A stretch of 64,000 nucleotides of DNA, taken from contig CADASK010000024.1 in the NCBI GenBank assembly GCA_902790495.1, forward strand, positions 5,625-69,624, given 5' to 3'. The translations under genes were made by a program, and so were the position numbers. The stretch's first letter is position 1, and every line of letters starts with the position of its first letter. Below the pieces are notes generated by a model, which searched no databases, was not told the DNA's origin, and worked only from the letters and a program-made list of their open reading frames with translations. This DNA is from an uncultured Eubacteriales bacterium (lineage in GTDB: Bacteria > Bacillota > Clostridia > Christensenellales > Aristaeellaceae). This document shows positions 20,771 through 56,471 of this stretch, piece by piece.

Positions 20771-20820
20771 CCTCATCCGTCAGCCCTGCGGGCTGACACC
20801 TTCCCCCAGAGGGGGAAGGC
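20771..20820 (+). repeat. Family-2 double-hairpin repeat (D1)
   Basis: cctcatcc GTCAGCCC tgc GGGCTGAC ac CTTCCCCC aga GGGGGAAG gc. Confidence 0.85.
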
Positions 20821-20880
20821 AAGGGGGTTCGTCTGCAACATGAAAGCCATTCACAATAGCTGCCAAAACAAGTGCGGCTG

Positions 20881-20977
20881 CGAAGGGTTGGAGGGGGCTC
20901 GGAGCGCCCGGAAAACGCCATGTTATGGCGTTTTCAGCGGAGAGCGGGCGGCAGCCCCGGACCGACCGCAAAGCCCC
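20881..20977 (+). repeat. Family-1 repeat, long form, 3'-truncated (C10)
   Basis: cgaagggtt GGAGGGGG [insert] ccgcaaag cccc, after which the H1 3' arm and H2 are missing. Confidence 0.85.
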
Positions 20978-20987
20978 AAGTGCGGCG

Positions 20988-21047
20988 CGAAGGTTTCCAA
21001 AGGGCGATCGCAAAGCCCTTTGGTCGCCGCCCGCAGGCGGCGAAATC
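20988..21047 (+). repeat. Family-1 repeat, short form (C11)
   Basis: cgaaggttt CCAAAGGG cgatcgcaaag CCCTTTGG TCGCCGCC cgca GGCGGCGA aatc. Lies 10 nt after truncated C10. Confidence 0.9.
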
Positions 21048-21102
21048 TCCTGCAGCCAAAAGGAAAAGCCCTCCATTTCCGGAAGGGCTTTTCTTTATGC
21101 CA

Positions 21103-22230
21103 TCAGGATTCAGCCCAGTCCTGATACAAACTCCTTCTCGTGCGCCTCCTGGTCATCTCCACCAGCCCCAGGGAGGTGTACCCGTGCACAACGGTCTTCA
21201 CGCGGTCCCGGGCCAGGGCCTCCCGCAGGGCGGCCAGCACGGCCTCGCGGTCCGCCTCCTCCGCCATGTCGATCAGGTCCATGATGATGATCCCGCCCAG
21301 GCTGCGCAGGCGAATCTGCCTCGCGGCCTCGCGCACGGCCTCCAGGTTGGTCTCCAGCAGCGTGCGGCGCAGGCTCTCGCCGGTGTGGCGGGCGGTGTTC
21401 ACGTCGATCACCGTCAGCGCCTCGCAGGGGTCGATCACGAGGTTCCCGCCGCCGGGCAGGGGCACGCGGCGCTGCAAAGCGGCGTCCCGCTGGCGGATCA
21501 GGCCGTGGCGCTCCATCACGCCGGGCGCCTCCACCTCGCAGGGCAGGCGAGCCGCGTATTGCTCCGCTAAAGCGGCGTCCTCGGTCACCAGGCCGTCGAG
21601 GCCGCGGGGCAGCTCGTCCTCCAGCAGGGCGTCCAGCAGCGTGCGCGGGCGGTCGACGCAGGACGGCGCGTGGGCGGTGGGCAGTCTTTCGGCTACCTCC
21701 TCCCAGTGGGCGAGCAAGGCCTCCGCCTCGCCGCGCACCGCCGTCTCCGAGGCGTCCGCCGCCGCGTGGCGCAGCACCAGGCCGAAGCGTCCCCGGGCGA
21801 TCTCCGCGCCGAGGGCCTTCAGGCCGGCGATCTCCCCGGCGTCCGTCACGCGGGCGGAGACGCCAATGTGGCGGTTCATAGGCATCAGCAGCACATACTC
21901 CCCGCACAGGGTGATGTCCCGGGTGAGGAAGGCGCCCTTCGTGCCCTGGGCGGCGCGGCGCACCTGCACCGGCACGCGCATGCCCGTGCGCAGGGGCTGG
22001 CCCTCGAAGGTGGCGCTGTTCTCCTTCAGCGGCAAAAACCCCATCTTCTCCTCGCCGATGTCCACAAAGGCCGCGCTCATACCCAGCATCACGCGGCGCA
22101 CCACGCCCAGGTAGATGGCCTCGGTGGACGCGGCGGAGGCGTCCTCGCGCAGGTATTCGATCAGCACCCCGTCCTCGGTCAGGGCGATCTCCCGGTTAGG
22201 GACGGTGGTGGTATAAACGATTCTCTTCAT
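21103..22230 (-). CDS. rng: Ribonuclease E/G family protein (RNase G-like)
   Basis: MKRIVYTTTVPNREIALTEDGVLIEYL... with an S1-like N-terminus (AAFVDIGEEKMGFLP) and the catalytic segment ALTVIDVNTARHTG. Start 22230 is 8 nt downstream of the upstream gene's stop. Confidence 0.8.
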   Translation of the reverse strand: MKRIVYTTTVPNREIALTEDGVLIEYLREDASAASTEAIYLGVVRRVMLGMSAAFVDIGEEKMGFLPLKENSATFEGQPLRTGMRVPVQVRRAAQGTKGAFLTRDITLCGEYVLLMPMNRHIGVSARVTDAGEIAGLKALGAEIARGRFGLVLRHAAADASETAVRGEAEALLAHWEEVAERLPTAHAPSCVDRPRTLLDALLEDELPRGLDGLVTEDAALAEQYAARLPCEVEAPGVMERHGLIRQRDAALQRRVPLPGGGNLVIDPCEALTVIDVNTARHTGESLRRTLLETNLEAVREAARQIRLRSLGGIIIMDLIDMAEEADREAVLAALREALARDRVKTVVHGYTSLGLVEMTRRRTRRSLYQDWAES

Positions 22231-22237
22231 AGCGTCA

Positions 22238-22909
22238 TCAGAGCGTTTCCAGCGCCGCCAGCTGCCCGTCCGCACCGCGTCCCAGCAGCCCCAGACGGGT
22301 CACGCCGAAGCGGGGCTTTTCGCAGCCGGCGTCGGCGCACAGGGCGGTCACCAGCATGTCCGGCTTGCAGTTCTCCGTCTCGGAGAGGGCCAGCACCGCG
22401 TGGAGCGTGCCGCCCTCCATGGACAGCTCAAAGATCCACGGGCGGATGTTGACCTCCTTCACGCCGCTCTTGGTCTTCCGCTCGGCGAGGATTTCCTCCC
22501 GCGCCAGGAAGCCCGGCAGCGCGGCGCGGCAGCTCTCCGCCGCCTGGGCGTTCAGCAGGGTGATGCGGTAGTCCGCGGCCTGCACCATCGCCATCAGGGC
22601 GGGGTGCCGGTCGTCCAGGGCCCGGGCGGAGACCAGCTGCATCTCCGGCGGCAGGGCCCGGTTCATGGTCGCCACAAAATCCTCCGGGGTCATTTCCCGG
22701 CTCAGGGTCACGTCCATCAGCTCCCGCTCGCCGCTGGCGCCCACGGACAGGGCCGAGGCGAAGGTCAGCAGGATGTGCGGGTTGAAGCCGTTGGAGTAGG
22801 CCACCGGCACGCCCGAGCGGCGCAGCGCCCGCTGCATCGCCCGCATGATGTCCAGATGCCCGATGTGCCTCAGGCGCTCACCCTTGCGAAACACGGCCAG
22901 CATCCGCAT
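22238..22909 (-). CDS. TIGR03936-family radical-SAM-associated protein (DUF2344)
   Basis: MLAVFRKGERLRHIGHLDIMRAMQRALRRSGVPVAYSNGFNPHILLTFASAL matches the conserved N-terminus of this family. Overlaps the upstream gene by about 30 nt. Confidence 0.75.
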   Translation of the reverse strand: MRMLAVFRKGERLRHIGHLDIMRAMQRALRRSGVPVAYSNGFNPHILLTFASALSVGASGERELMDVTLSREMTPEDFVATMNRALPPEMQLVSARALDDRHPALMAMVQAADYRITLLNAQAAESCRAALPGFLAREEILAERKTKSGVKEVNIRPWIFELSMEGGTLHAVLALSETENCKPDMLVTALCADAGCEKPRFGVTRLGLLGRGADGQLAALETL

Positions 22910-24752
22910 AGCTGCACACCCCCTTGTAGCGCTGAATGCCGCAGCCGTTGCAGCCCTGGCGGCAGTCGCGGGTCGTTTCGGCGGCGAGAGCCTTTTCCCA
23001 CTCGCGCCAGAGGAAGGGCTTCACAATCCCGCTGTCGATGAAATCCCAGGGCAGAAGCTCGTCCTTCTCCCTGCGGCGGTTGGCGTAGAAGGCCGGGTCG
23101 AGACCGCAGTCCGCGAAGGCCTGCAGCCAGGCGTCCAGCTTGAACAGCTCGGTCCAGCCGTCCAGCATGCAGCCCAGCTCGTGGGCGCGCAGCAGCACGC
23201 CGCCCAGCCGGCGGTCGCCCCGGGCGAAGCAGGCCTCCAGGAAGCTCAGCCCGCTCTCATGGTAGTTGAAGGTGACGCCCTTCACGCCCTTGAACTTTTC
23301 GCGGAGGTAGGCCTGCTTCTGCTGCAGGGTCTCGCGGGTGTCCTGGGGCTCCCACTGGAAGGGGGTCACCGGCTTGGGCACGAAGGAGGAGGCGCTCACG
23401 GTGACGCGCAGGCCCTTCGCCCGAACGCCCTTGGGCACGGCGAAATAGCAGGCAACCACCTTGCGCGCCAGCTCCACCATGCCGTCCAGATCCTCGTAGG
23501 TCTCCGTCGGCAGGCCGATCATAAAGTAGAGCTTCACGCTGCTCCAGCCGCCCTGGAAGGCGTCGGAGACCTTCTCCATCAGGTCCTCCTCGGTGACGCC
23601 CTTGTTGATGACGTCCCGCAGGCGCTGGGTGCCGGCCTCCGGAGCGAAGGTCAGGGAGGTCTTGCGCACCTTCTGGGTCTCCTCGAGGGATTCCTTCAGC
23701 ACGCTGTCCAGGCGCAGGGACGGCAGCGAGATGGAGACGCGCTCCTGCTGCAGATCCTTCATCAGCTGGCGGATCAGATCGGCCAGGCAGGTGTAGTCGC
23801 CGCTGGAGAGGCTGGAGAGGCTCATCTCCTCATAGCCGGTGGATTTTTCGAGGGCGAGGGCAAGCTGCACCAGGCGCTTGAGGCTGCGTTCGCGCACCGG
23901 GCGGTAGAGCATGCCGGCCTGGCAGAAGCGGCAGCCCCGGGTGCAGCCGCGCATGATCTCCAGCATGATGCGGTCGTGCACGATCTCCGTGTAGGGCACG
24001 GGGATCTCCTCGGGATAGTAGGCGCTGTCCAGGTCGGTGACGATGCACTTCTCGACCTTCGCGGGGGCCTCCGGGCAGTTGGGCGTCATGGCGGCCAGGG
24101 TGCCGTCCGGGTTGTAGGTCACGTCGTAGAGGGCCGGCACATAGACGCCCTTGATCTTCGCCAGGGTCTTCAGGCAGTCCATGCGCGGCGCGCCGCTCTT
24201 CTTCCAGTCGCGGATGGTGGCGGTCACCTCCAGGGTGACCTCCTCGCCGTCGCCGATCATGAAGGCGTCGATGAAGTCCGCCAAAGGCTCCGGGTTGAAA
24301 GCGCAGGGGCCGCCCGCCACCACGATGGGCTCCTCGCGCCGCCGGTCGCGGCTGAGCAGGGTCACGCGCCCCAGCTCCATCATCGCCAGGATGTTGGAGT
24401 AGCTCATCTCGTACTGCAGCGTGAAGCCGATCATGTCGAAATCACACAAGGCGCGGCGGCTCTCCATGGAAAACAGCGGCACGTCCTCCTGCCGCATCAG
24501 CTCCATCATATCCGTCCAGGGCATGAAAAAGCGCTCGCACACGCTGTCCGGCTCGCGGTTGACCAGGCCGTAGAGGATCTTCATGCCCAGGTGGCTCATG
24601 CCCACCTCGTAGGTATCCGGGAAGCAGAAGCCGTAGTGCAGGGCCACCTCGTCCCAGGGCTTCACCACGGTGTTCATCTCTCCGCCCGTGTAGCGCGGCG
24701 CCTTCTGCACCTGCTCCAGCAGGGCTTCGATCTTTTCGTTCGATACAGTCAA
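22878..24752 (-). CDS. TIGR03960-family B12-binding-domain radical SAM protein
   Basis: QKAPRYTGGEMN leader, CTRGCRFCQAG radical SAM cluster motif. Preferred start is TTG 24752, 7 nt after GAAGGAGG. An ATG at 24776 lacks an SD. Confidence 0.8.
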   Translation of the reverse strand: MTVSNEKIEALLEQVQKAPRYTGGEMNTVVKPWDEVALHYGFCFPDTYEVGMSHLGMKILYGLVNREPDSVCERFFMPWTDMMELMRQEDVPLFSMESRRALCDFDMIGFTLQYEMSYSNILAMMELGRVTLLSRDRRREEPIVVAGGPCAFNPEPLADFIDAFMIGDGEEVTLEVTATIRDWKKSGAPRMDCLKTLAKIKGVYVPALYDVTYNPDGTLAAMTPNCPEAPAKVEKCIVTDLDSAYYPEEIPVPYTEIVHDRIMLEIMRGCTRGCRFCQAGMLYRPVRERSLKRLVQLALALEKSTGYEEMSLSSLSSGDYTCLADLIRQLMKDLQQERVSISLPSLRLDSVLKESLEETQKVRKTSLTFAPEAGTQRLRDVINKGVTEEDLMEKVSDAFQGGWSSVKLYFMIGLPTETYEDLDGMVELARKVVACYFAVPKGVRAKGLRVTVSASSFVPKPVTPFQWEPQDTRETLQQKQAYLREKFKGVKGVTFNYHESGLSFLEACFARGDRRLGGVLLRAHELGCMLDGWTELFKLDAWLQAFADCGLDPAFYANRRREKDELLPWDFIDSGIVKPFLWREWEKALAAETTRDCRQGCNGCGIQRYKGVCSYADAGRVSQG

Positions 24753-24854
24753 GGGGCGGCCTCCTTCGTCTGTCATGGGTCTTAGGGGAATTGTAGCATC
24801 GATGACCGGGTTTGTCTATCGGCAAATACCATGAAAAAAGGATCGCCGCGGCAT

Positions 24855-24896
24855 ACAAAAAGCCGGGCTTCACGCCGACTGACGTGTTTGCCCGGC
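24855..24896 (-). terminator. Rho-independent terminator of the Rpn-like gene
   Basis: Minus strand: GCCGGGC aaacacgtcagtcggcgtgaa GCCCGGC ttttt. Confidence 0.7.
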
Positions 24897-24905
24897 CTGA
24901 TTGCC

Positions 24906-25790
24906 TCATACCGGCAGCCGTTTCCTCTCCTGCAGCAGCGCCTCAAATTCCGGCAGGGTCTTGTTCGCCCGCCTCGCGCCCTCCTGCACGGGCAGGATGC
25001 CGTCCAGCACCAGCTGGATCAGCGTGTCCAAGGCACCCTCAGCCCGGCCCTCCATGCGGCCTTCCTTGCGGCCCGTCTCCAGCGCCAGCTTGCTCTGCGC
25101 CTTTGCATATTGCTCAATGGCATATTCCTGGTTGAACAGCGTCACCATGATGTCGATGACCTCCTTCTCCTGCTCGTTGAGGTAGTTGATCAGAACGCCC
25201 CGATCCTTGCAGATGCGAATGGCCTCCTGCGCCGCTTCCCTGGTTCTGCCGAGCAGCTGAACCTGCCTGTCCAGCACATGGCAGAAGATGATATACTGGC
25301 CGATGATATCCTCCGTCTCCGCGGTGAAGACCCGCGCCTCCAGCTCCAGCGGCAAATCGGCCCGCCCGAAGAAATCCTTTCTCAGCGAGATGATTTCCGG
25401 CACCGTCTGCGCGCCGGTGTAGATCACATAGAATTCCGGGAACGGCAGCTCCAGCTTCCGGGTGTCGTGGATGTCGTACACATTCCTGTGGATGTATTCC
25501 TGCATGGTGTCCGCCAGGTACAGCAGGGTGCGGATCAGGATATTGACCGACCAGGTGGCCTGCGCCTCCACAAAGATCATCAGCTTGTCCCTGACCACGA
25601 AGGCGAGATCGTTGTACTGATGATTGGTGATCACCTGCTTGAGGGTGATGGGTTTGATGTCCGAGGCGAGCACATCGGTCATATCCGGATGCAGGGTCTG
25701 GAACAGCTGAAGCCGGTAGTCGTCCCGCTCAAACAGATCGATAAAGACAGAGTTCTTGAAATCCCGCTTGACACCAGGCTCCATATGCAT
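24906..25790 (-). CDS. Rpn-family recombination-promoting nuclease / putative transposase (PD-(D/E)xK, YhgA-like)
   Basis: DLAFVVRDKLMIFVEAQAT (D...E.Q nuclease core) and a C-terminal KEGRMEGRAEG repeat segment typical of this family. The start is among three close ATGs (25805, 25790, 25784). Confidence 0.6.
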   Translation of the reverse strand: MHMEPGVKRDFKNSVFIDLFERDDYRLQLFQTLHPDMTDVLASDIKPITLKQVITNHQYNDLAFVVRDKLMIFVEAQATWSVNILIRTLLYLADTMQEYIHRNVYDIHDTRKLELPFPEFYVIYTGAQTVPEIISLRKDFFGRADLPLELEARVFTAETEDIIGQYIIFCHVLDRQVQLLGRTREAAQEAIRICKDRGVLINYLNEQEKEVIDIMVTLFNQEYAIEQYAKAQSKLALETGRKEGRMEGRAEGALDTLIQLVLDGILPVQEGARRANKTLPEFEALLQERKRLPV

Positions 25791-25901
25791 CCCTTCTTTC
25801 CTCATTTCTATTATATCGGCCGGAGCAGGGAGAGTCAAGCATGGAAAGAAGAAAAGCCCTCCCAACCGGGAAGGCTTGAAGGCTTACCCTCTGCTCCTCC
25901 G

Positions 25902-27077: not shown

Positions 27078-27146
27078 GGCCTGCCGTCCCATGCGGCAGG
27101 CCCTCTCAGTCAGCCTTCGGCTGACAGCTCTCCCAGAGGGAGAGCC
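27078..27146 (+). repeat. Family-2 double-hairpin repeat (D2) preceded by an extra hairpin
   Basis: GGCCTGCCG tcccatg CGGCAGGCC, then ccctctca GTCAGCC ttc GGCTGAC agc TCTCCC aga GGGAGA gcc. Intergenic between the GH39 and AKR genes. Confidence 0.85.
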
Positions 27147-27156
27147 AGGGTTTCGC

Positions 27157-40270: not shown

Positions 40271-40318
40271 AAGATGGTACCTCCCGGAGCATCAAAGATT
40301 GTTGATCGTGCAGGCAAA

Positions 40319-40366
40319 CCTCATCCGGCCTCGCAAAGCTTGGCCACCTTCCCCAAGGGGGAAGGC
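40319..40366 (+). repeat. Family-2 repeat (D3)
   Basis: cctcatcc GGCC tcgcaaagctt GGCC ac CTTCCCC aag GGGGAAG gc. The first hairpin is degenerate. Confidence 0.75.
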
Positions 40367-40384
40367 AAAGACGAAACGCGGCAA

Positions 40385-40437
40385 GCCTTCCCCATAGGGG
40401 AAGGTGGCATCGCGCTTCAGCGCGATGACGGATGAGG
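40385..40437 (-). repeat. Family-2 repeat (D4)
   Basis: The plus strand reads gc CTTCCCC ata GGGGAAG gtgg CATCGCGC ttca GCGCGATG acggatgagg. It contains the flippase stop codon (tca at 40417-40419) in the hairpin loop. Confidence 0.85.
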
Positions 40438-41865
40438 TCCTTCTTTCCTCCTCAGCAGGCGAAGAATCCCCTGATTCTTCGTCAGCCTCCACAGGGCGAG
40501 GCAGCACACGCCGTAGACCGCCGCGCCGACGAGCATCGCCGCGGCCAGGGCCGTCCAGCCGCCGGGCAGCAGGCGGAACACCAGCCGCACCGCGCAGGTC
40601 ATCACCGCGCCGATGCCGCAGTAGGTCAGGGCGTAGCGCAGGAAGCGGCCGTAGGGCAGCTCGCCGCGCAGGTGCAGATATTGTACCACGGGAACCGTCC
40701 CTTCCGCAAGCACCGTGCCGATCACCGCGCCCATGGCCCCCATGCGGGGGATCAGCAGGCTGTTGGCAACCAGGTTGACCGCCGCCCCCGCCGTGACCGA
40801 GCGCACCACGATCCTGTCCCGCTCCTGGGGCAGAATCCACTGGGTGCGCACCACGTTGGCGAAGCCGATGAGGATCAGCGTGGCCGCCAGCGGGATCATC
40901 AGCGCGCCGGAGCGCCTGAAGTCCTCGCCGTAATAGAGCGGAGCCAGCTCGGGCGCGACGCTGGCGATGCCGAAGCCCAGGGCGCACACCATGCACAGCA
41001 CCAGCTGCATGCTCAGGTCGATGTGGCGGCGGATGTCCTCCACCCGGCCCTGCTTCCACATGTGGCTGACCTTGGGCATCATCACCGTGCCCACGGCCGA
41101 GATGAAACCGGAGAGACAGTAGATGATCTTCTCCGCGTTCTCGTACAGGCCGTTCTCCGCCATGCCCGCCATGGCGCCCACCATCACCTTGTCCATGGTG
41201 CGGTAGACGCTGACGGCCAGCACCGAGAGGAAGAGCACCGCGCAGGGCTTCAGGTGGCGCAGGGCCTCCGCCCGGGTCACCGGGGTCAGGGACACGAGGC
41301 TCCGCAGGCTAAGCGCGGTGAGCAGGCAGCCCACCAGCGTCGCCAGGGCCCACACCAGGCCGTAGATCCACAGGTCGTCCGGCGACTTCACGAAGATGAA
41401 CACACAGGCTGCCGCCGCCAGCTTGACCGCCGTGTTTTTCAGGGCGATGGGCTTGAAGCGGTCGAGGCCCATCAGGCACCAGTCCAGGTTGACCAGGCAC
41501 GAGAGGGACGCCGGGGTCAGCGCCCAGGCGATGGCCTTCTCCTCGTCCGCCACCAGGGCCGCGTAGGCGATCCACACCGCCAGCGTCAGCCCGGCGACGA
41601 TGCGCTGCATCCGCCACACGGAGGAGAACACGCGGCTCAGCGCTGCCCTGTCGTCCCGGGCCCGGGCGACGGCGCGCACGCCGTAATTTTCCAGGCCGAG
41701 CATGGCCACCAGGCAGAAGAAATAGCTGATGTTCCAGGCATAGCTGTACAGCCCCACGCCCGCCTGCCCGCACACCCGCGAGAGGTACGGCGCGGTGACC
41801 AGGGGCAGCAGCACCGAGAAGACCCGGTAGCCCACATTGTAAAGGGTGTTTTTGCGTGTGCTCAA
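40417..41865 (-). CDS. Polysaccharide biosynthesis flippase (Wzx-like, MOP superfamily)
   Basis: About 12-14 TM segments. KNTLYNVGYRVFSVLLPLVTAPYLSRVCG is a typical N-terminus. The likely start is TTG 41865, 11 nt after aaaggag. The longer ORF to 41922 runs into repeat D5. Confidence 0.75.
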   Translation of the reverse strand: MSTRKNTLYNVGYRVFSVLLPLVTAPYLSRVCGQAGVGLYSYAWNISYFFCLVAMLGLENYGVRAVARARDDRAALSRVFSSVWRMQRIVAGLTLAVWIAYAALVADEEKAIAWALTPASLSCLVNLDWCLMGLDRFKPIALKNTAVKLAAAACVFIFVKSPDDLWIYGLVWALATLVGCLLTALSLRSLVSLTPVTRAEALRHLKPCAVLFLSVLAVSVYRTMDKVMVGAMAGMAENGLYENAEKIIYCLSGFISAVGTVMMPKVSHMWKQGRVEDIRRHIDLSMQLVLCMVCALGFGIASVAPELAPLYYGEDFRRSGALMIPLAATLILIGFANVVRTQWILPQERDRIVVRSVTAGAAVNLVANSLLIPRMGAMGAVIGTVLAEGTVPVVQYLHLRGELPYGRFLRYALTYCGIGAVMTCAVRLVFRLLPGGWTALAAAMLVGAAVYGVCCLALWRLTKNQGILRLLRRKEGPHPSSR

Positions 41866-41894: not shown

Positions 41895-41949
41895 GCCTTC
41901 CCCCGGAGGGGGAAGGTGGCATCGGGCTTCAGCCCGATGACGGATGAGG
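41895..41949 (-). repeat. Family-2 repeat (D5)
   Basis: gc CTTCCCCC gga GGGGGAAG gtgg CATCGGGC ttca GCCCGATG acggatgagg. A direct repeat of D4 with compensatory stem changes. Confidence 0.85.
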
Positions 41950-41967
41950 ATCTGTGTTGTCTGCTGG

Positions 41968-42014
41968 CCCTCTCAGTCAGCCTTACGGCTGACAGCTCTC
42001 CCAGAGGGAGAGCC
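41968..42014 (+). repeat. Family-2 repeat (D6)
   Basis: ccctctca GTCAGCC tta GGCTGAC agc TCTCCC aga GGGAGA gcc. Confidence 0.85.
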
Positions 42015-42025: not shown

Positions 42026-42049
42026 GGCCTTTCCCCTCCGGGGAAAGCC
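42026..42049 (+). repeat. Family-2-like single hairpin (D7)
   Basis: gg c CTTTCCCC tcc GGGGAAAG cc followed by TTTT. Confidence 0.6.
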
Positions 42050-42059
42050 TTTTATACAC

Positions 42060-42087
42060 TTGACAAAGCCTCCGCGATGAGTATAAT
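42060..42087 (+). promoter_or_regulatory. Promoter of bioY
   Basis: TTGACA, 16-nt spacer, TATAAT. Confidence 0.6.
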
Positions 42088-42119
42088 GCGTAAACTGTAA
42101 ACTATATTTTGGTTTACGC
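42088..42119 (+). promoter_or_regulatory. Candidate BirA operator
   Basis: GCGTAAAC - 16 nt (AT-rich) - GTTTACGC inverted repeat immediately downstream of the -10 box of a biotin transporter gene. Confidence 0.5.
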
Positions 42120-42948: not shown

Positions 42949-43033
42949 TGCGAGGCCTCCTTTATGCTTTAGGATAGAAAAAGCATAGCATAGTTTGCGG
43001 GGGAAGTCAATTGCCCGGCGCGCGATTCAGGGC

Positions 43034-43061
43034 TTGCAAAGGGGTGGAAAGGTGGTATGAT
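43034..43061 (+). promoter_or_regulatory. Promoter of the Fic gene
   Basis: TTGCAA, 16-nt spacer, TATGAT. Confidence 0.45.
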
Positions 43062-43120
43062 GAAAGATGGCGAGCTTGTGTTGATAATTCAATGATAGAA
43101 GCTGCCGAAAGGATTCCATC

Positions 43121-44113
43121 ATGCATGAAGCCTACACTCCGCCCTTCCATATGACGGACGAAATCACTGCCCTGGCCATCGAGATCGGCGAGATGATCGG
43201 CCGGCTCTCCGTCAGCGCGGGTCTCAGCCCCGACCCAACGCTGCGCAGGGAAAGCCATATCCGCCGGGTCTATTCCTCGCTGGCCATCGAGCACAATACC
43301 CTTTCCCTCGACCAGGTGACGGATGTCATCGACGGGCACCGCGTGCTGGGGCCGCCCAAAGATATCCGGGAGGTCAAGAACGCCTACGAGGCCTACGAGC
43401 GCCTGAACAGCCTGAACCCCGCCTCGCAGGAAGATCTGCTGCTGGCCCACAGGCTGATGATGCAGGATCTGATCCCGGACGCGGGCTGTTACCGCAGCCG
43501 GGATGTCGGTGTGTACAGCGAGGGCCAGCTGATCCACGCCGGGACACCGGCGGCCTATGTGCCGGAGGTGATGAATCAGCTCTTCTCATGGCTGAACGAC
43601 GCCGCGGTGCATCCGCTCATCGCGGGCTGTATCTTCCACTATGAGTTTGAATTCATCCATCCGTTCTCGGATGGCAACGGACGCACAGGCAGGCTGTGGC
43701 ATTCGCTGATCCTGCAGAGATGGCAGCCCATTTTCGCCTGGCTTCCGGTGGAGAGCATGATCCACGAGCACCAGGCCGCCTATTATCAGGCCCTCGGCGC
43801 GTCAGACAGCACGGCCTTTGTCACGCTCATGCTGACCATCATCCGGGACATCCTGCGCGATCTGCGGCAGAACGCTTCAGAAGATGGCCATGTAAATGGC
43901 AGTGTAAATGGCAGTGTAAATGGCAGTGTAAACGAGGAAACCATCCTGCTGATTCTGCAAAAGAGACCCAAAGCCACCATCAAGCAGATCGCAGCGTGGA
44001 CCCATCTGTCTGTCCGACAGGTTTCCCGTCTGCTGGCAGGTCTGAAAGACAGCGGGAAGATTATCCGGCACGGGGCACCCAAGAACGGCTATTGGGAAGT
44101 GTCCTCCAACTGA
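43121..44113 (+). CDS. Fic-family protein (AMPylase-type) with C-terminal winged-helix domain
   Basis: Fic motif HPFSDGNGRTGR. N-terminal Fic_N-like SLAIEHNTL. C-terminal wHTH (IKQIAAWTHLSVRQVSRLLAGLKDSGKI). Confidence 0.85.
   Translation: MHEAYTPPFHMTDEITALAIEIGEMIGRLSVSAGLSPDPTLRRESHIRRVYSSLAIEHNTLSLDQVTDVIDGHRVLGPPKDIREVKNAYEAYERLNSLNPASQEDLLLAHRLMMQDLIPDAGCYRSRDVGVYSEGQLIHAGTPAAYVPEVMNQLFSWLNDAAVHPLIAGCIFHYEFEFIHPFSDGNGRTGRLWHSLILQRWQPIFAWLPVESMIHEHQAAYYQALGASDSTAFVTLMLTIIRDILRDLRQNASEDGHVNGSVNGSVNGSVNEETILLILQKRPKATIKQIAAWTHLSVRQVSRLLAGLKDSGKIIRHGAPKNGYWEVSSN
43892..43933 (+). repeat. 12-nt tandem repeat (3.5 copies) inside the Fic gene
   Basis: gtaaatggcagt x3 plus gtaaac, encoding VNGS-VNGS-VNGS-VN in the linker before the wHTH domain. 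Confidence 0.9.
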
Positions 44114-44130
44114 CCTCAAAGGAGTCCACC

Positions 44131-51251: not shown

Positions 51252-52799
51252 TTGGGCAAGAACATTCTCGAGATGAGAAATATCACCAAGGTGTTCCCGG
51301 GCGTGAAGGCGCTTGACCAGGTCAATATCGAGGTGGAGGAGGGCGAGATTCACGCCCTGTGCGGCGAGAACGGCGCGGGCAAATCCACCCTGATGAAGGT
51401 GCTCAGCGGCATTCACCCCTACGGCACCTACGAGGGCGACATCATCTATCAGGGTGAGGAGTGCCGTTTCCGCAACATCAAGGACAGCGAGCGCAAGGGC
51501 ATCGTCATCATCCACCAGGAGCTGGCGCTGGTCCCCTACCTGAGCATCGCCGAGAACATGTTTCTGGGCAACGAGCAGCAGAAGCGCAGGGGCGTGGTGG
51601 ACTGGGACAAGACCTACTCCACCTGCTCGAAATACCTGGAGATGGTCGGCCTGCACGAGAACCCGCGCACGCTGATCAAGGACATCGGCGTGGGCAAGCA
51701 GCAACTGGTCGAGATCGCCAAGGCGCTGGCCAAGAACGTGAAGCTGCTGATCCTCGACGAGCCCACCTCCTCCCTGAATGAACAGGACGCCAAGAACCTG
51801 CTGGACATGCTCATCCGCTTCAAGGGCCAGGGCATCACCAGCATCCTGATCTCGCACAAGCTCAACGAGATCAGCTACTGCTCGGACAAGATCACCATCA
51901 TCCGCGACGGCCACACCATCGAGACGCTGGACAAGGCCGTGGACGACATCAGCGAATCCCGGATCATCAAGGGCATGGTGGGCCGCGAGATGACGAACCG
52001 CTTCCCCCAGCGCGAGCACCACATCGGCGACGTCTCGCTGGAGATCAGGAACTGGAACGTCTACCATCCGCAGTTCACCGAGCGCAAGGTGGTGGACAAC
52101 GTCTCCATCACGCTGCGCAAGGGCGAGGTCGTCGGCATCTCCGGCCTGATCGGCGCCGGGCGCACCGAGCTGTGCATGTCGGTCTTCGGCCGGGCCTACG
52201 GCAACCGCATCTCCGGCGAGCTGCTGCTGGACGGCAAGCCGATCCAGCTGCACGACATCCCCACCGCCATCCGGCACGGCATCATGTACGTCACCGAGGA
52301 CCGAAAGGGCGACGGCCTGATCGTCTCGGACTCCATCAAGCACAACATCTCCCTCGCCCGGCCGGCCTTTATCTCCTCGCGCGGCGTGATCGACCAGGAC
52401 CTGGAAGCCATCAAGGGCAAGGAATTCAGCCAGGAGCTGGGGGTCAAGACCCCCACCATCGAGCAGCTGGTCGGCAACCTCTCCGGCGGCAACCAGCAGA
52501 AGGTGCTGCTGGCCAAGAGCCTCTTCGCCGAGCCGGACATCCTCATGCTCGACGAGCCGACCCGCGGTGTCGACGTCGGCGCTAAGTACGAAATCTACGA
52601 AATCATCAACAAGATGGTCGGGGACGGGAAGTCCGTGCTGATGATTTCTTCTGAACTGCCTGAGTTGTTAGGCATGGCCGACCGCATCTACGTGATGAAC
52701 GAAGGCCATGTGGTTGCCGAGCTGCAGAACGACGGCACCGTGACCCAGGAGGAGATCATGGGCTACATCCTGCGCGACAGCAACAGGAATATTCAATAA
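51252..52799 (+). CDS. gguA: Multiple-monosaccharide ABC transporter ATP-binding protein (duplicated ATPase)
   Basis: Two ABC cassettes (GENGAGKST; LSGGNQQK). [20 protein letters not shown] is a typical N-terminus. TTG start 51252 follows aaggggga. Confidence 0.88.
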
Positions 52800-52812
52800 C
52801 GGGGGTTCAAGC

Positions 52813-54027
52813 ATGAAAAAGAAGTCGCTTATGAAGGGCAATATGCGCGAGATGAGCATGCTGATTGCCCTCGTCATCATCATCGTTCTCTTCACCATTC
52901 TCACCAAGGGCATCCTCCTGAGGCCCATGAACATCGCCAACCTGATCAACCAGAACGCCTACGTGGTGATCCTGGCCTGCGGCATGCTGCTGTGCATCCT
53001 CACCGGCGGCAACATCGACCTGAGCGTTGGCTCCACCGTCGCCCTGGTCGGCGCCTTCGCCGGCACCTTCATCATCACCTGGGGCTGGAACCCCTACCTG
53101 AGCATCGTCCTGTGCCTGCTCATCGGCATCGGCCTGGGCGCGTGGCAGGGCTTCTGGATTGCCTATGTGGGCATCCCGCCCTTCATCTGCACCTTGAGCG
53201 GCATGCTGGTGTTCCGCGGCATCACCCTGCTCATCCTGAACGGCCTGACGCTCGCGCCCTTCCCGGCGGCCTACACCCAGCTGTCCACGGGCTTCATCCC
53301 CGATATCGCGCCCGATGGCATCACCCTGTTCGGCACGAAGCTGAACCTGCTGTGCCTGCTGGTGGGCGTCGCCATCGCCGTGGCCTATGTGGCCCTGCAG
53401 ATCAAGAACAACGCCACCCGCAAGAAGAAGGGCTATGAGACCGAGCCCCTGCCCAGCCTGCTGATCAAGACCGTCATCATCTGCGCGGCCGTGATCGCGG
53501 TGTTCTGGAAGCTGGCCCAGCACAAGGGCATCCCCACCGTGCTGATCATCCTGGGCATCCTGCTGCTGGTGTATAACTTCATCACCCAGAAGACGGTGAT
53601 GGGCCGTCACCTCTACGCCATCGGCGGCAACAAGAAGGCCGCCGAGCTCTCCGGCGTCAAGACCAAGAAGATGATGTTCCTGGCCTATACCAACATGAGC
53701 TTCATCGCGGCCATCGCCGGCCTGGTCTTCGCGGCCCGTCTGAACAGCGCCAGCCCGGTGGCCGGCCAGAGCTTTGAGATGGACGCCATCGCCTCCTGCT
53801 TCATCGGCGGCGCGTCCGCCTACGGCGGCACCGGCACCATCGGCGGCGCCCTGATCGGCGCCCTGATCATGGGCACGCTGAACAACGGCATGTCCATCAT
53901 GGGCATCTCCTCCAACACGCAGCAGGTGGTCAAGGGCCTTGTGCTGCTGATCGCCGTCGCCATCGACGTGCTGGGCAAGAAGAACTTCAACTGGAAGTCT
54001 CTGCTGAACCTGGGCAAGAAGGCGTGA
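52813..54027 (+). CDS. gguB: Multiple-monosaccharide ABC transporter permease
   Basis: 404-aa polytopic permease of the ribose/xylose type (GGNIDLSVGS motif). Confidence 0.85.
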   Translation: MKKKSLMKGNMREMSMLIALVIIIVLFTILTKGILLRPMNIANLINQNAYVVILACGMLLCILTGGNIDLSVGSTVALVGAFAGTFIITWGWNPYLSIVLCLLIGIGLGAWQGFWIAYVGIPPFICTLSGMLVFRGITLLILNGLTLAPFPAAYTQLSTGFIPDIAPDGITLFGTKLNLLCLLVGVAIAVAYVALQIKNNATRKKKGYETEPLPSLLIKTVIICAAVIAVFWKLAQHKGIPTVLIILGILLLVYNFITQKTVMGRHLYAIGGNKKAAELSGVKTKKMMFLAYTNMSFIAAIAGLVFAARLNSASPVAGQSFEMDAIASCFIGGASAYGGTGTIGGALIGALIMGTLNNGMSIMGISSNTQQVVKGLVLLIAVAIDVLGKKNFNWKSLLNLGKKA

Positions 54028-54070
54028 CATGGCCTTCCGCCATGACCAACCAAGGAGGGAATGGGCAGAC

Positions 54071-55594
54071 ATGCGCTACGTATTGGGTGTCGACCTCGGA
54101 ACCAGCGGAACCAAGACCGTTCTCTTTGACGAAAACGGCATTGCCGCCGCGTCCGCGTCCCGGGAGTATCCGATGGATCAGCCCTACAACGGCTGGGCCG
54201 AGCAGGATCCCGACGACTGGTGGCGCGCCGCGCGGGACACCATCCGCGAGATTCTGGACAAGAGCGGCGTGAAGGCCGCCGACATCTGCGGTCTGGGCAT
54301 CAGCGGCCAGATGCACGGCCTGGTGATGACCGACGACGCGGGCGCCGCCCTGCGCAAGGCCATCCTCTGGTGCGACGGCCGCACCGGCGAGGAGTGCCGC
54401 GAGCTGACCGAGCGGGTCGGCAAGGAGCGGCTGATCGCCATCTCCGCCAACCCGGCCCTCACCGGCTTCACCGCCGGCAAGATCCTCTGGGTGCAGAAGC
54501 ACGAGCCGGAGCTGTGGGCGCAGGTGCGCCACGTGATGCTCCCCAAGGACTATGTGCGGCTGAAGCTGACCGGCGTCTTCGCCTCCGAGATGAGCGACGC
54601 CAGCGGCACCAACATGCTGGACGTGCCGAACCGCCGCTGGTCGGAGGAGATCGCCGCGGCCCTGAACCTGCCCATGGCCTACCTGCCGCCGCTGTGCGAG
54701 AGCCCCGACGTGGCCGGACGCATCAGCGCCGAGGCCGCGAAGGAGACCGGCCTGCTGGAGGGCATGCCCGTGGCGGGCGGCGCGGCGGACAACATGGCCG
54801 GCGCCATCGGCACAGGCGTGGTGCGTGCGGGCAAGGCCTTCACCACCATCGGCACCAGCGGCGTGGTGTTCGCCCACAGCGACACCGTGCAGATCGACCC
54901 GGCAGGCCGGGTGCACACCTTCTGCGCGGCAGTGCCCGGGGCCTACACCGTGATGAGCTGCACGCTGGCGGCAGGCCTGTCGCTGAAGTGGTTCCGCGAC
55001 ACCTTCTGTCAGGCGGAGATCCAGACCGCCGACGGCATGGGCACCGACCCCTATGTGCTGATGAACGAGCAGGCCGCCCAGAGCCCCATCGGCTCCAACC
55101 GGCTGATCTTCCTGCCCTACCTGATGGGCGAGCGCAGCCCGCTGCTGGACAGCGACGCCCGCGGCGCCTTCATCGGCCTGAGCGCGATCCATCAGCGCCG
55201 CGACCTGCTGCGCGCGGTGATGGAGGGCGTCATCTTCTCTCAGCGGCAGAACCTGGACATCCTGCGCGGCATGCACGTGGTGCCGGAGACCATGCTGGCC
55301 TGCGGCGGCGGCGCGAAGAGTCCCTTCTGGCGGCAGATGATGGCGGACGTCTTCGGGATGCCCGTGGCCACGGTGCAGAACACCGAGGGCCCGGCCCTGG
55401 GCGCGGCCATCCTGGCCGGCACGGCGGCGGGGCTGTACGAGAGCGTCCCCGCGGCCTGCGAAAAGATGATCCGCGAGAGCGAGCCCCTGCAGCCTGACCA
55501 GGCGCGCGGCGCGGCCTACGAACCGTTCTTTGAGATTTACGAGAAGCTGTATCCCCAGCTGAAGAGCGCTTACGCCGAGTTAGCGAAGCTGTAA
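54071..55594 (+). CDS. xylB: Xylulokinase (FGGY family)
   Basis: MRYVLGVDLGTSGTKTVLFDENG...GWAEQDPDDWW...GISGQMHGLV are typical XylB motifs. Confidence 0.85.
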   Translation: MRYVLGVDLGTSGTKTVLFDENGIAAASASREYPMDQPYNGWAEQDPDDWWRAARDTIREILDKSGVKAADICGLGISGQMHGLVMTDDAGAALRKAILWCDGRTGEECRELTERVGKERLIAISANPALTGFTAGKILWVQKHEPELWAQVRHVMLPKDYVRLKLTGVFASEMSDASGTNMLDVPNRRWSEEIAAALNLPMAYLPPLCESPDVAGRISAEAAKETGLLEGMPVAGGAADNMAGAIGTGVVRAGKAFTTIGTSGVVFAHSDTVQIDPAGRVHTFCAAVPGAYTVMSCTLAAGLSLKWFRDTFCQAEIQTADGMGTDPYVLMNEQAAQSPIGSNRLIFLPYLMGERSPLLDSDARGAFIGLSAIHQRRDLLRAVMEGVIFSQRQNLDILRGMHVVPETMLACGGGAKSPFWRQMMADVFGMPVATVQNTEGPALGAAILAGTAAGLYESVPAACEKMIRESEPLQPDQARGAAYEPFFEIYEKLYPQLKSAYAELAKL

Positions 55595-55623
55595 GAGATT
55601 CCGCTGCCATATCAACGCGGCGG

Positions 55624-55747
55624 CGAAGGGGTGCAGGGGGTTCGGAGCGCCCGGAAAACGCCATGTTATGGCGTTTTCAGCGGAGAACGGGCGGCAGCCC
55701 CGGACCGACCGCAAAGCCCCCTGCCCGCGCCCGCAGGCGTGGAATCC
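55624..55747 (+). repeat. Family-1 repeat, long form (C15)
   Basis: cgaaggggt GCAGGGGG [insert] ccgcaaag CCCCCTGC CCGCGCC cgca GGCGTGG aatcc. The H2 stem has a G-T (G-U) pair only if read on the plus strand. Confidence 0.9.
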
Positions 55748-55792
55748 CTGTGCCAAAGCACAAAGCTTTCAAACCAGAAAGGATGACAACCC

Positions 55793-56428
55793 ATGAAAAT
55801 CCTTCCCGTCAGTGATCCGGCATTCCGCCCCTATGGGCGCATCGTCGGAGGCTACCCGGTCGAGGGCCTGCTGGAGGCCCTGACCAAGACGCCGCTGCCC
55901 GAGGGCACCGAGTATGTGCCCAAGGACGAAACCCTGCACGCCGCGAAGGACGCGGAGGCCGTCGGCGAGGCCCTCTTCGGCGGCATGCCCTTCCAGCTGG
56001 GCTGGTGCAACGGCCACAACACCAGGCTGAACTGCCTGGAGTACCACCGCGACAGCGAGTTCAACCTCTCCCCCGAGGCTTTCATCCTCCTGCTGGCGAA
56101 GATGGACGACATCGCGGAGGACGGCACCCTGGACACCGCGAAGGTCAAGGCCTTCTGCGTGCCGGCGGGCGTGATGGTCGAGGTCTACGCCACCACCCTG
56201 CACTATGCCCCCTGCCACGTCGACCCGGCCAAGGGCTTCCACGTGATGGTGGGCCTGCCCGCGGGCACCAACACCGACTACCGCCCGGTGAACGCGGCAA
56301 ACGTCGCCGACAGCACGATCTGGGCGCGGAACAAGTGGCTGCTGGCCCATCCCGAGAGCAGCGAGGCCGCCCAGGGCGCGAAGGCGCTGCTGGTGGGCGA
56401 AAACATCGATATCGCCAAGGATCTGTAA
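55793..56428 (+). CDS. DUF4867-family protein
   Basis: MKILPVSDPAFRPYGRIV... at 211 aa resembles the DUF4867 proteins found next to sugar kinase/isomerase genes. Family assignment is from memory. Confidence 0.55.
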   Translation: MKILPVSDPAFRPYGRIVGGYPVEGLLEALTKTPLPEGTEYVPKDETLHAAKDAEAVGEALFGGMPFQLGWCNGHNTRLNCLEYHRDSEFNLSPEAFILLLAKMDDIAEDGTLDTAKVKAFCVPAGVMVEVYATTLHYAPCHVDPAKGFHVMVGLPAGTNTDYRPVNAANVADSTIWARNKWLLAHPESSEAAQGAKALLVGENIDIAKDL

Positions 56429-56434
56429 AAAACT

Positions 56435-56471
56435 GCCCTCTCCGTCAGCGCTTCGCGCTGACGGAGAGGGC
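56435..56471 (+). repeat. Family-2-related 17-bp perfect hairpin (D8)
   Basis: GCCCTCTCCGTCAGCGC ttc GCGCTGACGGAGAGGGC, 7 nt after the DUF4867 stop. No T-tract. Confidence 0.8.

Follow-up and report, generated by a model that had tools for sequence, protein, structure and literature searches.

A dispersed CGTC-tagged intergenic repeat of Clostridia and other bacteria with a predicted hairpin-in-triplex fold

Repeat units and neighbouring genes in the window

The window, i.e., the whole 64-kb stretch of DNA analysed, lies in the 2.47 Mb genome of an uncultured ruminant-gut Clostridia bacterium (the source genome), and contains eight features of a repeat referred to as family 2, namely six full units, a palindromic variant and a lone hairpin. 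These lie where the original prediction had placed eight units of a second double-hairpin family, and the sequence proved to be as described at all eight sites, six of which are full units. Covariance model R1, built from the genome-wide copies, matched these six and, weakly, 56435-56471, and each of the six folds into a pair of hairpins (z-scores between -2.6 and -6.1). A unit of 45-60 nt is composed of a 5' pyrimidine box, hairpin A, a tail of 1-3 nt (CCA, ACA or CAG) and hairpin B, in which a 3-nt loop joins a pyrimidine arm to a purine arm. The stem of hairpin A, a hairpin of the CGTC-tagged REP type, varies freely in sequence so long as it remains paired. Three of the window units are on the minus strand, a point not noted in the original prediction, the full ones being 40385-40438 and 41895-41950.

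The first full unit (20770..20820, plus strand, subtype 2a-I, model match 56.9 bits) has the box CCCTCATCC at 20770-20778, hairpin A GTCAGCCC-tgc-GGGCTGAC at 20779-20797, the linker A at 20798 and hairpin B CCTTCCCCC-aga-GGGGGAAGG at 20799-20819, and its DNA fold (-18.9 kcal/mol, z -5.2) leaves the box unpaired. Immediately before it, a decayed, internally deleted plus-strand unit (GCCCTCTCAGTCATCC..ACAAGGGGAGCCAAGG, 20736..20769) comes directly behind the stop codon that closes the gene at 19463-20737; this unit, which was missed in the original prediction and is not detected by the covariance model, was recognised by comparison with the 2b/2d consensus. The unit at 27100..27146 (plus strand, subtype 2b, 65.1 bits, z -4.2) is made up of the box GCCCTCTCA, hairpin A GTCAGCC-ttc-GGCTGAC, the linker A and hairpin B GCTCTCCC-aga-GGGAGAGC.

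The next two units belong to subtype 2a-II and face each other, tags outside, the left half at 40318..40366 (plus strand, 44 bits, with a degenerate hairpin A, GGCC..GGCC) and the right half at 40385..40438 (minus strand, 58.1 bits). The stems CATCGCGC and CATCGGGC, which are present as originally listed although their strand had gone unnoted, are minus-strand copies, and 40318-40438 is therefore one inverted doublet, whose fold as a whole has an energy of -46.9 kcal/mol and a z of -9.2. A minus-strand flippase-like gene takes its last 8 codons from the box and the hairpin-A 5' arm of unit 40385..40438, in such a way that the stop codon of the gene (TGA, 40417-40419) sits in the hairpin-A loop.

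Upstream of the same gene lies the unit at 41895..41950 (minus strand, subtype 2a-I, 46.2 bits), the stem-B loop of which is inverted (TCC on the unit strand), followed by that at 41967..42014 (plus strand, subtype 2b, 64.3 bits, z -5.2). The feature at 42026..42049 is a lone stem-B-like hairpin, GGCTTTCCCC-tcc-GGGGAAAGCC, which has no covariance-model match and is not a full unit; the TTGACA..TATAAT promoter of a bioY-like gene is directly downstream. Finally, 56435..56471 is a palindromic variant without stem B, with weak model matches on both strands, in which the box GCCCTCTCC and its reverse complement flank hairpin A (GTCAGCGC-ttc-GCGCTGAC), and the three together form one perfect 17-bp hairpin (-23.7 kcal/mol, z -9.0), located 6 nt past the stop codon that closes the gene at 55793-56428.

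Genome-wide copies, stem covariation and turnover

The source genome yielded 143 covariance-model matches at E<=0.01, i.e., about 140 copies, and 87 of 93 perfect-stem units are intergenic. The units stand singly or in inverted doublets of ~120 bp, in either orientation, and show no strand bias relative to the gene majority or the GC skew. The tendency to occur in pairs or clusters was borne out, given that 19 of 73 clusters have multiple units and that ten of the 11 two-unit 2a-II clusters are clean doublets of 108-122 bp, with the boxes outward in all. The adjacency to family 1 was found as a weak co-occurrence only, in nine common intergenic regions (odds ratio 2.4, p=0.03).

The compensatory change of the stems, originally seen among the window copies, holds for the source genome, where a set preselected for a stem A that pairs perfectly over 5 bp or more has both-sided change in 6/9 stem-A pairs and 4/8 stem-B pairs, with none of 500 shuffles as good. 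The signal is not lost in a larger alignment, for which about 100 other genomes supplied 127 distinct copies; there, 14 of 16 pairs change on both sides (matched by 0/500 shuffles). The members of family 2 are genuine copies of an intergenic DNA repeat widespread in bacteria, a CGTC-tagged REP.

The same covariation could be read as selection on an RNA fold, as the original prediction implied, in which case the hairpins, lying in 3' UTRs or intercistronic regions, would act as transcription terminators or stabilise the mRNA upstream, with possible further protection from an RNA triple helix of the pyrimidine motif. This agrees with the strong stems, with the frequent position of units close behind stop codons, with a modest bias of single units between same-direction genes (21 sense, 10 antisense) and with the T-rich tails of some 2a copies (at least 5 T in 12 nt in 7 of 25). 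We nonetheless consider a structured RNA decidedly unlikely, given that both orientations and inverted doublets are common, that seven clusters lie between divergent genes (in addition to 42 between same-direction and 14 between convergent genes), that a U-tract is not general, subtypes 2b-2e having none, and that no Rfam family matches. The stem-B loops, including that of unit 41895..41950, are also flipped to the reverse complement between strains ~98% identical, which is the behaviour of a palindrome at the DNA level and means that the loop sequence is not fixed.

Gain of the copies postdates the divergence from the nearest species, and among strains they are stable. Both clusters around the flippase gene, with the doublet 40318-40438 and unit 41895..41950, are absent in the closest species, and 55 of 56 orthologous loci in other species are without the unit, while all strains at >=98% identity carry the units. 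Copy number is patchy across the genera of the family, from 0 to 132, and the same sequence occurs in Clostridia, Negativicutes, Dehalococcoidia, Bifidobacterium and Alphaproteobacteria.

Species-level gain and patchy copy number among genera would suit a classical MITE, in which the ~120-bp doublet is moved by a DDE transposase via ACCTCATCCG terminal inverted repeats and the single units are broken halves, as would the uniform length and identical termini of the ten doublets. Neither a target-site duplication nor an exact empty site was found, nor was a parent insertion sequence; stem A differs between the two halves of a doublet, the single units form conserved subtypes of their own (2a-I, 2b-2e) and so are not decayed halves, and a MITE would not usually be conserved across phyla, all of which makes this origin extremely improbable.

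The 5' box as a mirror of stem B

Previously regarded simply as a conserved leader, the box mirrors the pyrimidine arm of stem B, and the two co-vary; this relation is new. Among 45 distinct box/stem-B types from the source genome and about 200 others, identity is 82% in mirror register 0, against 45-53% in shifted registers and at most 72% in any direct-repeat register. The observed value was attained in 0 of 20,000 permutations, a figure that overstates independence, since box and arm are both C/T strings of low complexity and the types share descent. Match at non-C positions is exact in 19/45 types (null mean 3.4, maximum 11), F1 is 0.85 in the mirror register and no higher than 0.65 in the 13 others tested, and covariation is present at levels 1, 4, 5, 7 and 8. 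Exact mirror variants pair the boxes CTCCCTCC, CTCCTTCC and CCCTCTCC with the stem-B pyrimidine arms CCTCCCTC, CCTTCCTC and CCTCTCCC, respectively, while Bifidobacterium has CTCCCTCT with TCTCCCTC and sphingomonads have CCCCTCC with CCTCCCC.

The box base is T or A opposite T-A pairs and A opposite an inverted G-C pair, and the purine-motif triad rules (as in PMC4666352) are obeyed by 325 of 360 triads; the A/T alternation opposite T-A pairs belongs to this DNA-only motif and not to the pyrimidine motif of RNA, which further argues against a structured RNA. The three conserved segments co-change as expected of a DNA triple helix. Minimum-energy folds leave the box unpaired, and in doublets it may alternatively pair with the box of the partner, as judged by folding.

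A double-hairpin REP without any triplex, in which the box is kept as, for example, a protein or nuclease recognition or cleavage site by the CGTC tag, and its mirror relation derives from low-complexity C/T sequence and shared descent, is possible, though rather unlikely. Hairpin A agrees with the CGTC-REP description, the cleavage of the Neisseria NTS hairpin by SsnA is governed by the bases just upstream of it (PMC11893778), one direct-repeat register attains 72% identity, and the most abundant subtype, 2a, is an imperfect mirror, with 6/8 triads by identity and 7/8 by the purine-motif rule (one triad is also mismatched in subtype 2e and some others). Against this view stand the lead of the mirror register over all 13 others, the exact match of several asymmetric variants in different phyla, covariation spread over five levels, and the canonical short-loop BoxC-like triplex motifs that also occur in the source genome.

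At the level of sequence, box and stem B co-vary in the manner that marks intrastrand triplexes of the BoxC/TMECO type, with hairpin A as the predicted second loop. Family 2 is best read as a DNA-level, REP-type structural or selfish repeat, and we give a probability of roughly 55% to a non-coding REP/BIME-type repeat with a predicted hairpin-in-triplex fold, as opposed to a structured-RNA gene; the triplex fold and any mobilising enzyme are what we infer.

Given the mirror relation between the box and the hairpin-B pyrimidine arm, a single strand can fold as hairpin A plus a three-stranded helix, hairpin A replacing, in this proposal, the 3-nt second loop of the BoxC/TMECO repeats. The G-rich strand would adopt a purine-motif (class II) triplex with G.GC, A.AT and T.AT triads, and the C-rich strand its pyrimidine-motif (class IV) counterpart. 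The triplex would form most likely in single-stranded DNA at replication, repair or DNA uptake, given that RNA does not form purine-motif triplexes. The units may be recognised, and may have been spread, in trans by a structure-specific enzyme of single-stranded DNA, in the manner of SsnA with NTS or RAYT with REPs; as this enzyme is not identifiable in the source genome, the present copies may be orphans. Effects on neighbouring genes, such as new stop codons, operon-junction spacing and RNA hairpins, would be by-products.

Relation to known repeat systems

The NTS/SRM repeats and the GIY-YIG single-stranded DNA nuclease SsnA (Nat Commun 2025, PMC11893778), which cuts the NTS hairpin of Neisseria and limits or shapes recombination, offer a precedent for the recognition of a CGTC hairpin, with the cut just upstream of the tag and the repeat acting as single-stranded DNA. 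NTS (CGTCATTCCCGCG..CGCGGGAATCYRG) and family 2 share an oriented, intergenic, clustered CGTC-tagged hairpin, whereas no second hairpin or triplex is described for NTS/SRM (PMC11893778). Family 2 could itself be the target of an Ssn-like nuclease in incoming or replicating single-stranded DNA, with a similar effect on recombination, given the common plan of CGTC tag, hairpin and C after the palindrome, the position around surface-polysaccharide genes (the flippase) and the wide occurrence of the repeat in sphingomonads, named as SRM-rich in PMC11893778. This appears very improbable, since the published SRM motif fits 0/93 units, the true SRM matches in sphingomonad loci are a different CGTC hairpin, and, unlike NTS/SRM, the source genome has no Ssn-type or single-domain GIY-YIG gene, its sole GIY-YIG protein being UvrC. 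Across 41 genera of the family, three genomes have small GIY-YIG ORFs, of which the two checked in repeat-bearing genomes are YhbQ-like; these ORFs have no flanking units, and their occurrence does not follow copy number. A search for genes with units on either side found none.

In E. coli and Pseudomonas, GTAG REPs, BIMEs and REPINs go with RAYT (Y1) transposases. Family 2 resembles them as a dispersed intergenic palindrome found as singletons and inverted doublets, with copy number differing among relatives, and departs from them in its CGTC tag, in the added second hairpin and mirror box, and in that no Y1/RAYT transposase gene was found in the source genome.

The match to a known repeat family that would have told against the original prediction exists in part, in that hairpin A fits the CGTC-tagged REP superfamily (PMC3733652) and the plan of three segments that of the intrastrand-triplex repeats (PMC4666352), neither of which has an established mechanism applicable to the source genome. 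Like family 2, the CGTC-tagged REPs (Di Nocera, De Gregorio and Rocco 2013, BMC Genomics 14:522, PMC3733652) are short, intergenic, high-copy palindromes that run from an unpaired CGTC tag to a CCA-type tail, with stems that differ among subsets, dimers mostly with tags outside, no associated transposase and a range over distant phyla, especially Alphaproteobacteria. They are single hairpins with a stem of 8-9 bp and a loop of 4-5 nt (5-12 bp and 3-4 nt in family 2), and only in family 2 is the hairpin flanked by a pyrimidine box and another hairpin, both conserved; the tag of family 2 is AGTC in 23/93 units and missing in 11/93. That paper covers five phyla, with no mention of Firmicutes/Clostridia, where family 2 occurs, and the words 'triplex' and 'mirror' are absent from its text.

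The BoxC, PIT and TMECO intrastrand triplex repeats (Hoyne et al. 2000; Holder et al. 2015, NAR 43:10126, PMC4666352) share with family 2 the three G/C-rich segments, pyrimidine, purine and purine-mirror (class II), the C-G-G, T-A-A and T-A-T triads, a strictly intergenic position (in family 2, for the proportion of units given above) with no strand bias, inverted pairs of two different subtypes and no tie to known mobile elements. Their plan, CCCTCNCCC-N3-6-GGGNGAGGG-N3-GGGNGAGGG, compares with CCTCTCCC-tct-GGGAGAGG-[loop]-GGAGAGGG in family 2, in which the second loop is not of 3 nt but a CGTC hairpin of 17-35 nt and the stems, unlike theirs, have 7-9 triads. The published triplex finder would miss family 2 because it allows loops of 1-6 nt (PMC4666352). 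TMECO is reported in Proteobacteria, while family 2 is also present in Clostridia and other phyla, and the TMECO triplex was shown in vitro (PMC4666352), that of family 2 being predicted from its base sequence. Family 2 unites two repeat types hitherto described only apart, the CGTC-tagged REP and the intrastrand-triplex repeat.

Organization and genomic census of the family 2 units

Each unit of family 2 is composed of a 5' pyrimidine box (CCCTCATCC, ACCTCATCC or GCCCTCTCA), hairpin A, a linker of 1-3 nt, and a C-rich/G-rich hairpin B. A reading of the sequence finds this plan at all eight places in the window (20771-56471) for which the original prediction had claimed a unit, and six of them were recovered as full units by covariance models (A4 and R1) built on copies from across the genome that carries the window (G000), while those at 42026-42049 and 56435-56471 are not full units. 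Folding of each full unit as single-stranded DNA yields exactly the two hairpins, with the 9-nt box remaining unpaired (z from -2.6 to -6.1). The units at 40385-40438 (the right half of the pair at 40318-40438) and 41895-41950 lie on the minus strand, so that the stems initially read as CATCGCGC and CATCGGGC are the GTCATCG-type stem read backwards.

The element at 56435-56471 lacks stem B: it consists of a box, hairpin A and a reverse-complement box, which together make a perfect 17-bp palindrome, and was matched by the covariance model weakly, on both strands. A lone GC-rich, stem-B-like hairpin (GGCTTTCCCC-tcc-GGGGAAAGCC), followed by TTTTAT, occupies 42026-42049, directly upstream of the near-consensus TTGACA..TATAAT promoter of a bioY-like gene (42026-42100); the promoter is kept in the closest species, the hairpin is not. 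A decayed unit, previously overlooked, lies at 20736-20769.

The draft genome (2.47 Mb, 64% GC, 94.5% complete), in which the window belongs to contig C24 and whose relatives are uncultured Clostridia sampled from rumen, omasum and gut, contains 93 perfect-stem units of five subtypes according to a structure scan, and 143 matches to the covariance model at E<=0.01. The subtypes are 2a-I (25 copies, box CCCTCATCC, stem B of 9 bp), 2a-II (32 copies, box ACCTCATCC, stem B of 8 bp), 2b/2c (28 copies, box CCCTCTC[A/C], stem B CTCTCCC), 2d (six copies, box CCCCTCA, stem B CTCCCCT) and 2e (two copies, box CCCTCTCA, stem B CTCCCCC). On its G-rich strand, a 2c unit runs from CCTCTCCC-tct-GGAGAGG.. through ..GGAGAGGG. 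The same scan found two copies of another double hairpin, which is not family 2, at C11:3833 and C27:40871 (CCATCA-caagt-TGATGG-CTCTA-CTTTCCC-atgt-GGGAAAG-TAGCAAAG).

Most units (87 of 93, by a crude GC3-based gene caller) are intergenic, and their clusters lie between same-direction (42), convergent (14) or divergent (seven) genes, approximately following the overall make-up of the intergenic regions of this genome. Single units between same-direction genes are in the sense orientation in 21 cases and antisense in 10, and no significant orientation bias of the units was found relative to the gene-strand majority or GC skew. The claimed tendency to pair is borne out by subtype 2a-II, which occurs mostly in inverted doublets: 10 of its 11 two-unit clusters are clean doublets of 108-122 bp, with the boxes facing outward in all 10. 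The supposed adjacency to family 1, the other dispersed double-hairpin repeat of the window, holds to the extent that the two share intergenic regions mildly more often than expected by chance (odds ratio 2.4, p=0.03), but the link is weak.

The terminal inverted repeats of the doublets recall a classical MITE. Neither a target-site duplication nor a conserved target was found flanking the doublets and the single units, however, and no parent element was seen, which makes an origin of this kind highly improbable.

In alignments from the same genome, changes on both sides of the pair occur in six of the nine stem-A pairs and four of the eight stem-B pairs, with a covariation score that none of 500 shuffles reached, and all the slid registers collapse. 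As a perfect stem A of 5 bp or more had been a condition for entering this set, the test was repeated on some 100 other genomes, in which the loci were collected by an exact pattern whose only fixed parts are the box, the tag and the beginning of stem B. The compensatory changes persist in this larger alignment of 127 distinct rows, with double changes in 14 of 16 pairs and none of 500 shuffles as good, in an alignment fitted to the model and thus favouring its structure. Sequence, covariance model, folding and covariation all confirm that the double-hairpin repeat family is real.

For a DNA palindrome, covariation alone is no proof of RNA function. Rfam returned no match in the window at the gathering score, and only chance-level miRNA or viral matches at E up to 10. 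The mean number of T residues in the 12 nt downstream is 1.0-1.8 in subtypes 2b-2e and 3.1-3.8 in 2a, and only 13 of the 93 units have at least five; an intrinsic terminator was rejected given that no general T-tract follows the units. An RNA element is thus quite improbable, and the most likely reading, at a probability of roughly 0.55, is that of a structural or selfish repeat acting at the DNA level.

The mirror box and a candidate triplex

When the subtypes are aligned, the box proves to be the pyrimidine arm of stem B in reverse order rather than complemented, such that, counting outward from hairpin A, the same base is found at each level on both sides. Exact mirror variants pair box CTCCCTCC with arm CCTCCCTC and box CTCCTTCC with arm CCTTCCTC in other genomes, CTCCCTCT with TCTCCCTC in a Bifidobacterium, CCCTCTCC with CCTCTCCC in G000 and others, and CCCCTCC with CCTCCCC in many sphingomonads. 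Over 45 distinct box/stem-B types, identity is 82% in the mirror register, 45-53% in shifted registers and at most 72% in any direct-repeat register; the mirror score was reached by none of 20,000 permutations, and box and arm share the same set of non-C positions in 19 of the 45 types (null mean 3.4, maximum 11), all of which refers to low-complexity sequences of types related by descent. The mirror register also has an F1 of 0.85, against at most 0.65 for 13 others. A direct-repeat model, in which the box and stem B would derive from a duplication, fits worse than the mirror model, and Watson-Crick pairing of the box with the loop or the purine arm can be discarded by reasoning, as it is inconsistent across subtypes.

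In an intrastrand triple helix, the third strand mirrors the pyrimidine strand of a hairpin, which is the arrangement seen here as far as sequence can indicate. The box presents T or A opposite T-A pairs and A opposite the inverted G-C pair, and reading the G-rich strand gives G.GC, A.AT and T.AT, plus T opposite C-G, where T is the preferred third-strand base. Stacked in this way, the three segments would follow a recognized scheme: G.GC, A.AT and T.AT are the purine-motif (class II) triads in Holder et al. 2015 (PMC4666352), where the ITxF definition of a triplex calls for three consecutive segments with C-G-G, T-A-A or T-A-T triads, stems of 6-15 and no more than one mismatch. This rule is obeyed by 325 of the 360 triads in the 45 types, with fits of 7-8 of 8 levels in 2b, 2c and 2d and 7 of 8 in 2a.

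A plain double-hairpin REP, with no triplex, would account for the two stems, and one or two levels of 2a, the commonest subtype, do not fit a triplex. Such a repeat is rather unlikely in view of the mirror register, and it may be inferred that the units are able to form triplexes.

Gain, stability and spread

Neither of the clusters around a flippase-like gene is present in the closest species-level relative (G005), whose flanking genes are 86% identical at the nucleotide level, and the two intergenic regions concerned measure approximately 40-50 nt there, against 146 and 223 nt here. At 55 of 56 orthologous loci in other species there is no unit within 600 nt, while the units are kept in all the same-species assemblies (98-100% identity). 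No exact empty site was found, the intergenic DNA of the nearest species being too diverged to fix the boundaries.

Between strains that are approximately 98% identical, the stem-B loops at 40404-40406 and 41911-41913 of the window are reverse-complemented relative to the strain loci L134 and L135 (ATA/TAT and GGA/TCC), with the stems unchanged. These are hairpin-loop inversions, a behaviour typical of DNA palindromes; throughout the genome, the stem-B loops are strongly purine-biased on the unit strand, and mostly AGA. A strain-variable slot lies at approximately 43015-44117, downstream of a rubredoxin gene, when compared with L134 and L136, and holds a Fic-domain gene here and a RelB/ParE toxin-antitoxin pair in other strains of the species.

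The doublet at 40318-40438 is located in an operon junction, and the minus-strand flippase-like gene (Polysacc_synt) ends inside the unit at 40385-40438, with its stop codon at 40417-40419, the box and hairpin A supplying its last eight codons (TSSVIAL*) and the stop. In the closest species, this gene directly abuts the next one (PGA_cap). In the annotation of gut and rumen Clostridia, family 2 accounts for altered gene ends, such as this one, as well as for spurious ORFs and stretched operon junctions.

The number of units ranges from 0 to 132 in 41 genera of the family. A search for the architecture in related Clostridia finds the exact box-tag-stem-B pattern in Oscillospiraceae and Lachnospiraceae, and the pattern also occurs in Selenomonas, Dehalococcoidia, Bifidobacterium, Bosea and Roseiarcus, while a sister form is common in sphingomonads.

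The units may have been mobilised in trans by an enzyme acting on single-stranded DNA. A broader and more tentative proposal, which is possible rather than probable, is that of a nested non-B DNA device, in which a CGTC hairpin sits in the loop of a purine-motif triplex formed on single-stranded DNA in vivo, and serves as the substrate of a nuclease or recombinase that spread the units across phyla. If this were true, the three-way covariation would be the first comparative evidence of selection for intrastrand DNA triplexes in bacteria, and would link CGTC REPs to BoxC/TMECO repeats and to Ssn-type biology.

Comparison with Ssn targets, CGTC REPs and BoxC-type triplex repeats

The Neisseria NTS (PMC11893778, 2025) is a CGTC-tagged hairpin that SsnA binds solely in single-stranded form and cleaves a few bases upstream; SsnA is a single-domain GIY-YIG nuclease of 94 aa whose gene is flanked by NTS copies. 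The family 2 units resemble the NTS, and differ from the SRM/NTS-Ssn system in two respects: none of the 93 matches the published SRM motif (HGTCWYN(0-2)YYVSBRHN(0-5)WNVSBRGN(0-2)RNCYNB), and no single-domain GIY-YIG Ssn was found in G000 (94.5% complete), where the sole PF01541 match is a 642-aa UvrC-like ORF. Small GIY-YIG ORFs occur in three genomes among the 41 genera; the two checked, from repeat-bearing relatives, are YhbQ-like and not flanked by units, and the presence of such ORFs does not track unit copy number. Despite the shared tag, a target of an Ssn-type nuclease is thus very doubtful. The SRM matches in sphingomonad loci belong to a different CGTC hairpin (CGTCACCCCCGCG-aaa-GCGGGGGCC), without triplex flanks, at 3135 and 4778 of L192 (Sphingomonas koreensis) and 4364 of L257; given its presence beside the sister form of family 2, two CGTC families coexist there.

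The CGTC-tagged REPs (Di Nocera et al. 2013, PMC3733652) carry at one end an unpaired CGTC, or one of its variants, TGTC and CCTC; their short stem measures 8-9 bp and begins with two A-T pairs, the loop has 4-5 nt, and the tail is 3 nt long, mostly CCA. Their dimers mostly have the tags outside (HH), they have no associated transposase, and they are commonest in Alphaproteobacteria, with no mention of Firmicutes or Clostridia. Family 2 shares with them the short palindrome, the high copy number and the mostly intergenic placement (143 model matches; 87/93 intergenic), together with the unpaired tag, which is CGTC in 57 units, TGTC in one, CGAC in one and absent from 11, and differs in the AGTC of 23 of the 93, a variant absent from that survey. 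A 3-nt tail is also shared, CCA being the most frequent (34 of 93), followed by ACA (31) and CAG (22). The sizes of hairpin A do not fit, with perfect stems of 5-12 bp and loops of 3 nt in 48 units and 4 nt in 43, and GTC is followed by an A-T pair and then by G-C or T-A.

In all 10 measured 2a-II doublets the tags are outside, as in the REPs, and there is likewise no dedicated transposase: a RAYT-associated GTAG REP or REPIN is ruled out by the CGTC tag and by the absence of any match to the Y1 transposase (PF01797) in G000, where the only genes bracketed by units, in the manner of a REPtron, are housekeeping ones (such as Obg, a lipoprotein and a macro-domain protein). Family 2 behaves like a CGTC REP, outside the SRM/Ssn system as defined. 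These REPs are abundant in many bacteria, with origin and function unsolved and no dedicated enzyme in the 2013 survey.

The BoxC/PIT/TMECO repeats, described by Hoyne et al. 2000 as cited in Holder et al. 2015 (PMC4666352), have the layout CCCTCNCCC-N3-6-GGGNGAGGG-N3-GGGNGAGGG; according to the latter, they are intergenic, without strand bias, occur as inverted pairs of two subtypes, have no link to mobile elements, fold into triplexes in vitro and show an association with genome instability. Canonical short-loop motifs of this kind (e.g., CCCCTCCCC-GCTTGC-GGGGAGGGG-TCG-GGGGTGGGG) are also present in G000, on contigs C15 (~18988, minus), C19 (~25224, minus), C35 (~59447, minus) and C76 (~135, plus), and the first three adjoin another conserved repeat (..ggtcgcccggggg..cctttcctccggaaag). 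Triplexes are not mentioned in the REP (PMC3733652) or Ssn (PMC11893778) papers, a literature search found no paper linking CGTC REPs with triplex repeats, and searches with the repeat sequences returned only primer noise.

Family 2 has the three segments in common with BoxC/PIT/TMECO, but has an entire CGTC hairpin as its second loop. The ITxF definition allows 1-6 nt in both loops, whereas here loop 1 has 3 nt and loop 2 (hairpin A plus linker) 17-35 nt, so that family 2 units would escape the published finder, restricted to 1-6-nt loops (PMC4666352), and such short-loop finders overlook a large class of candidates. The place of the TMECO 3-nt loop is probably filled by the G-C pair that closes hairpin A, together with a one-base linker. 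Judged on its sequence, family 2 is best classified as a nested repeat, with a CGTC-tagged REP inside a putative BoxC-type intrastrand triplex motif, and it occurs in Clostridia as well as in many other phyla. For BoxC/TMECO it has been unclear whether selection acts on the triplex itself, and family 2 bears on this question, as it unites both classes, with the CGTC hairpin exactly in the short-loop place of the triplex and three segments that co-vary across phyla.
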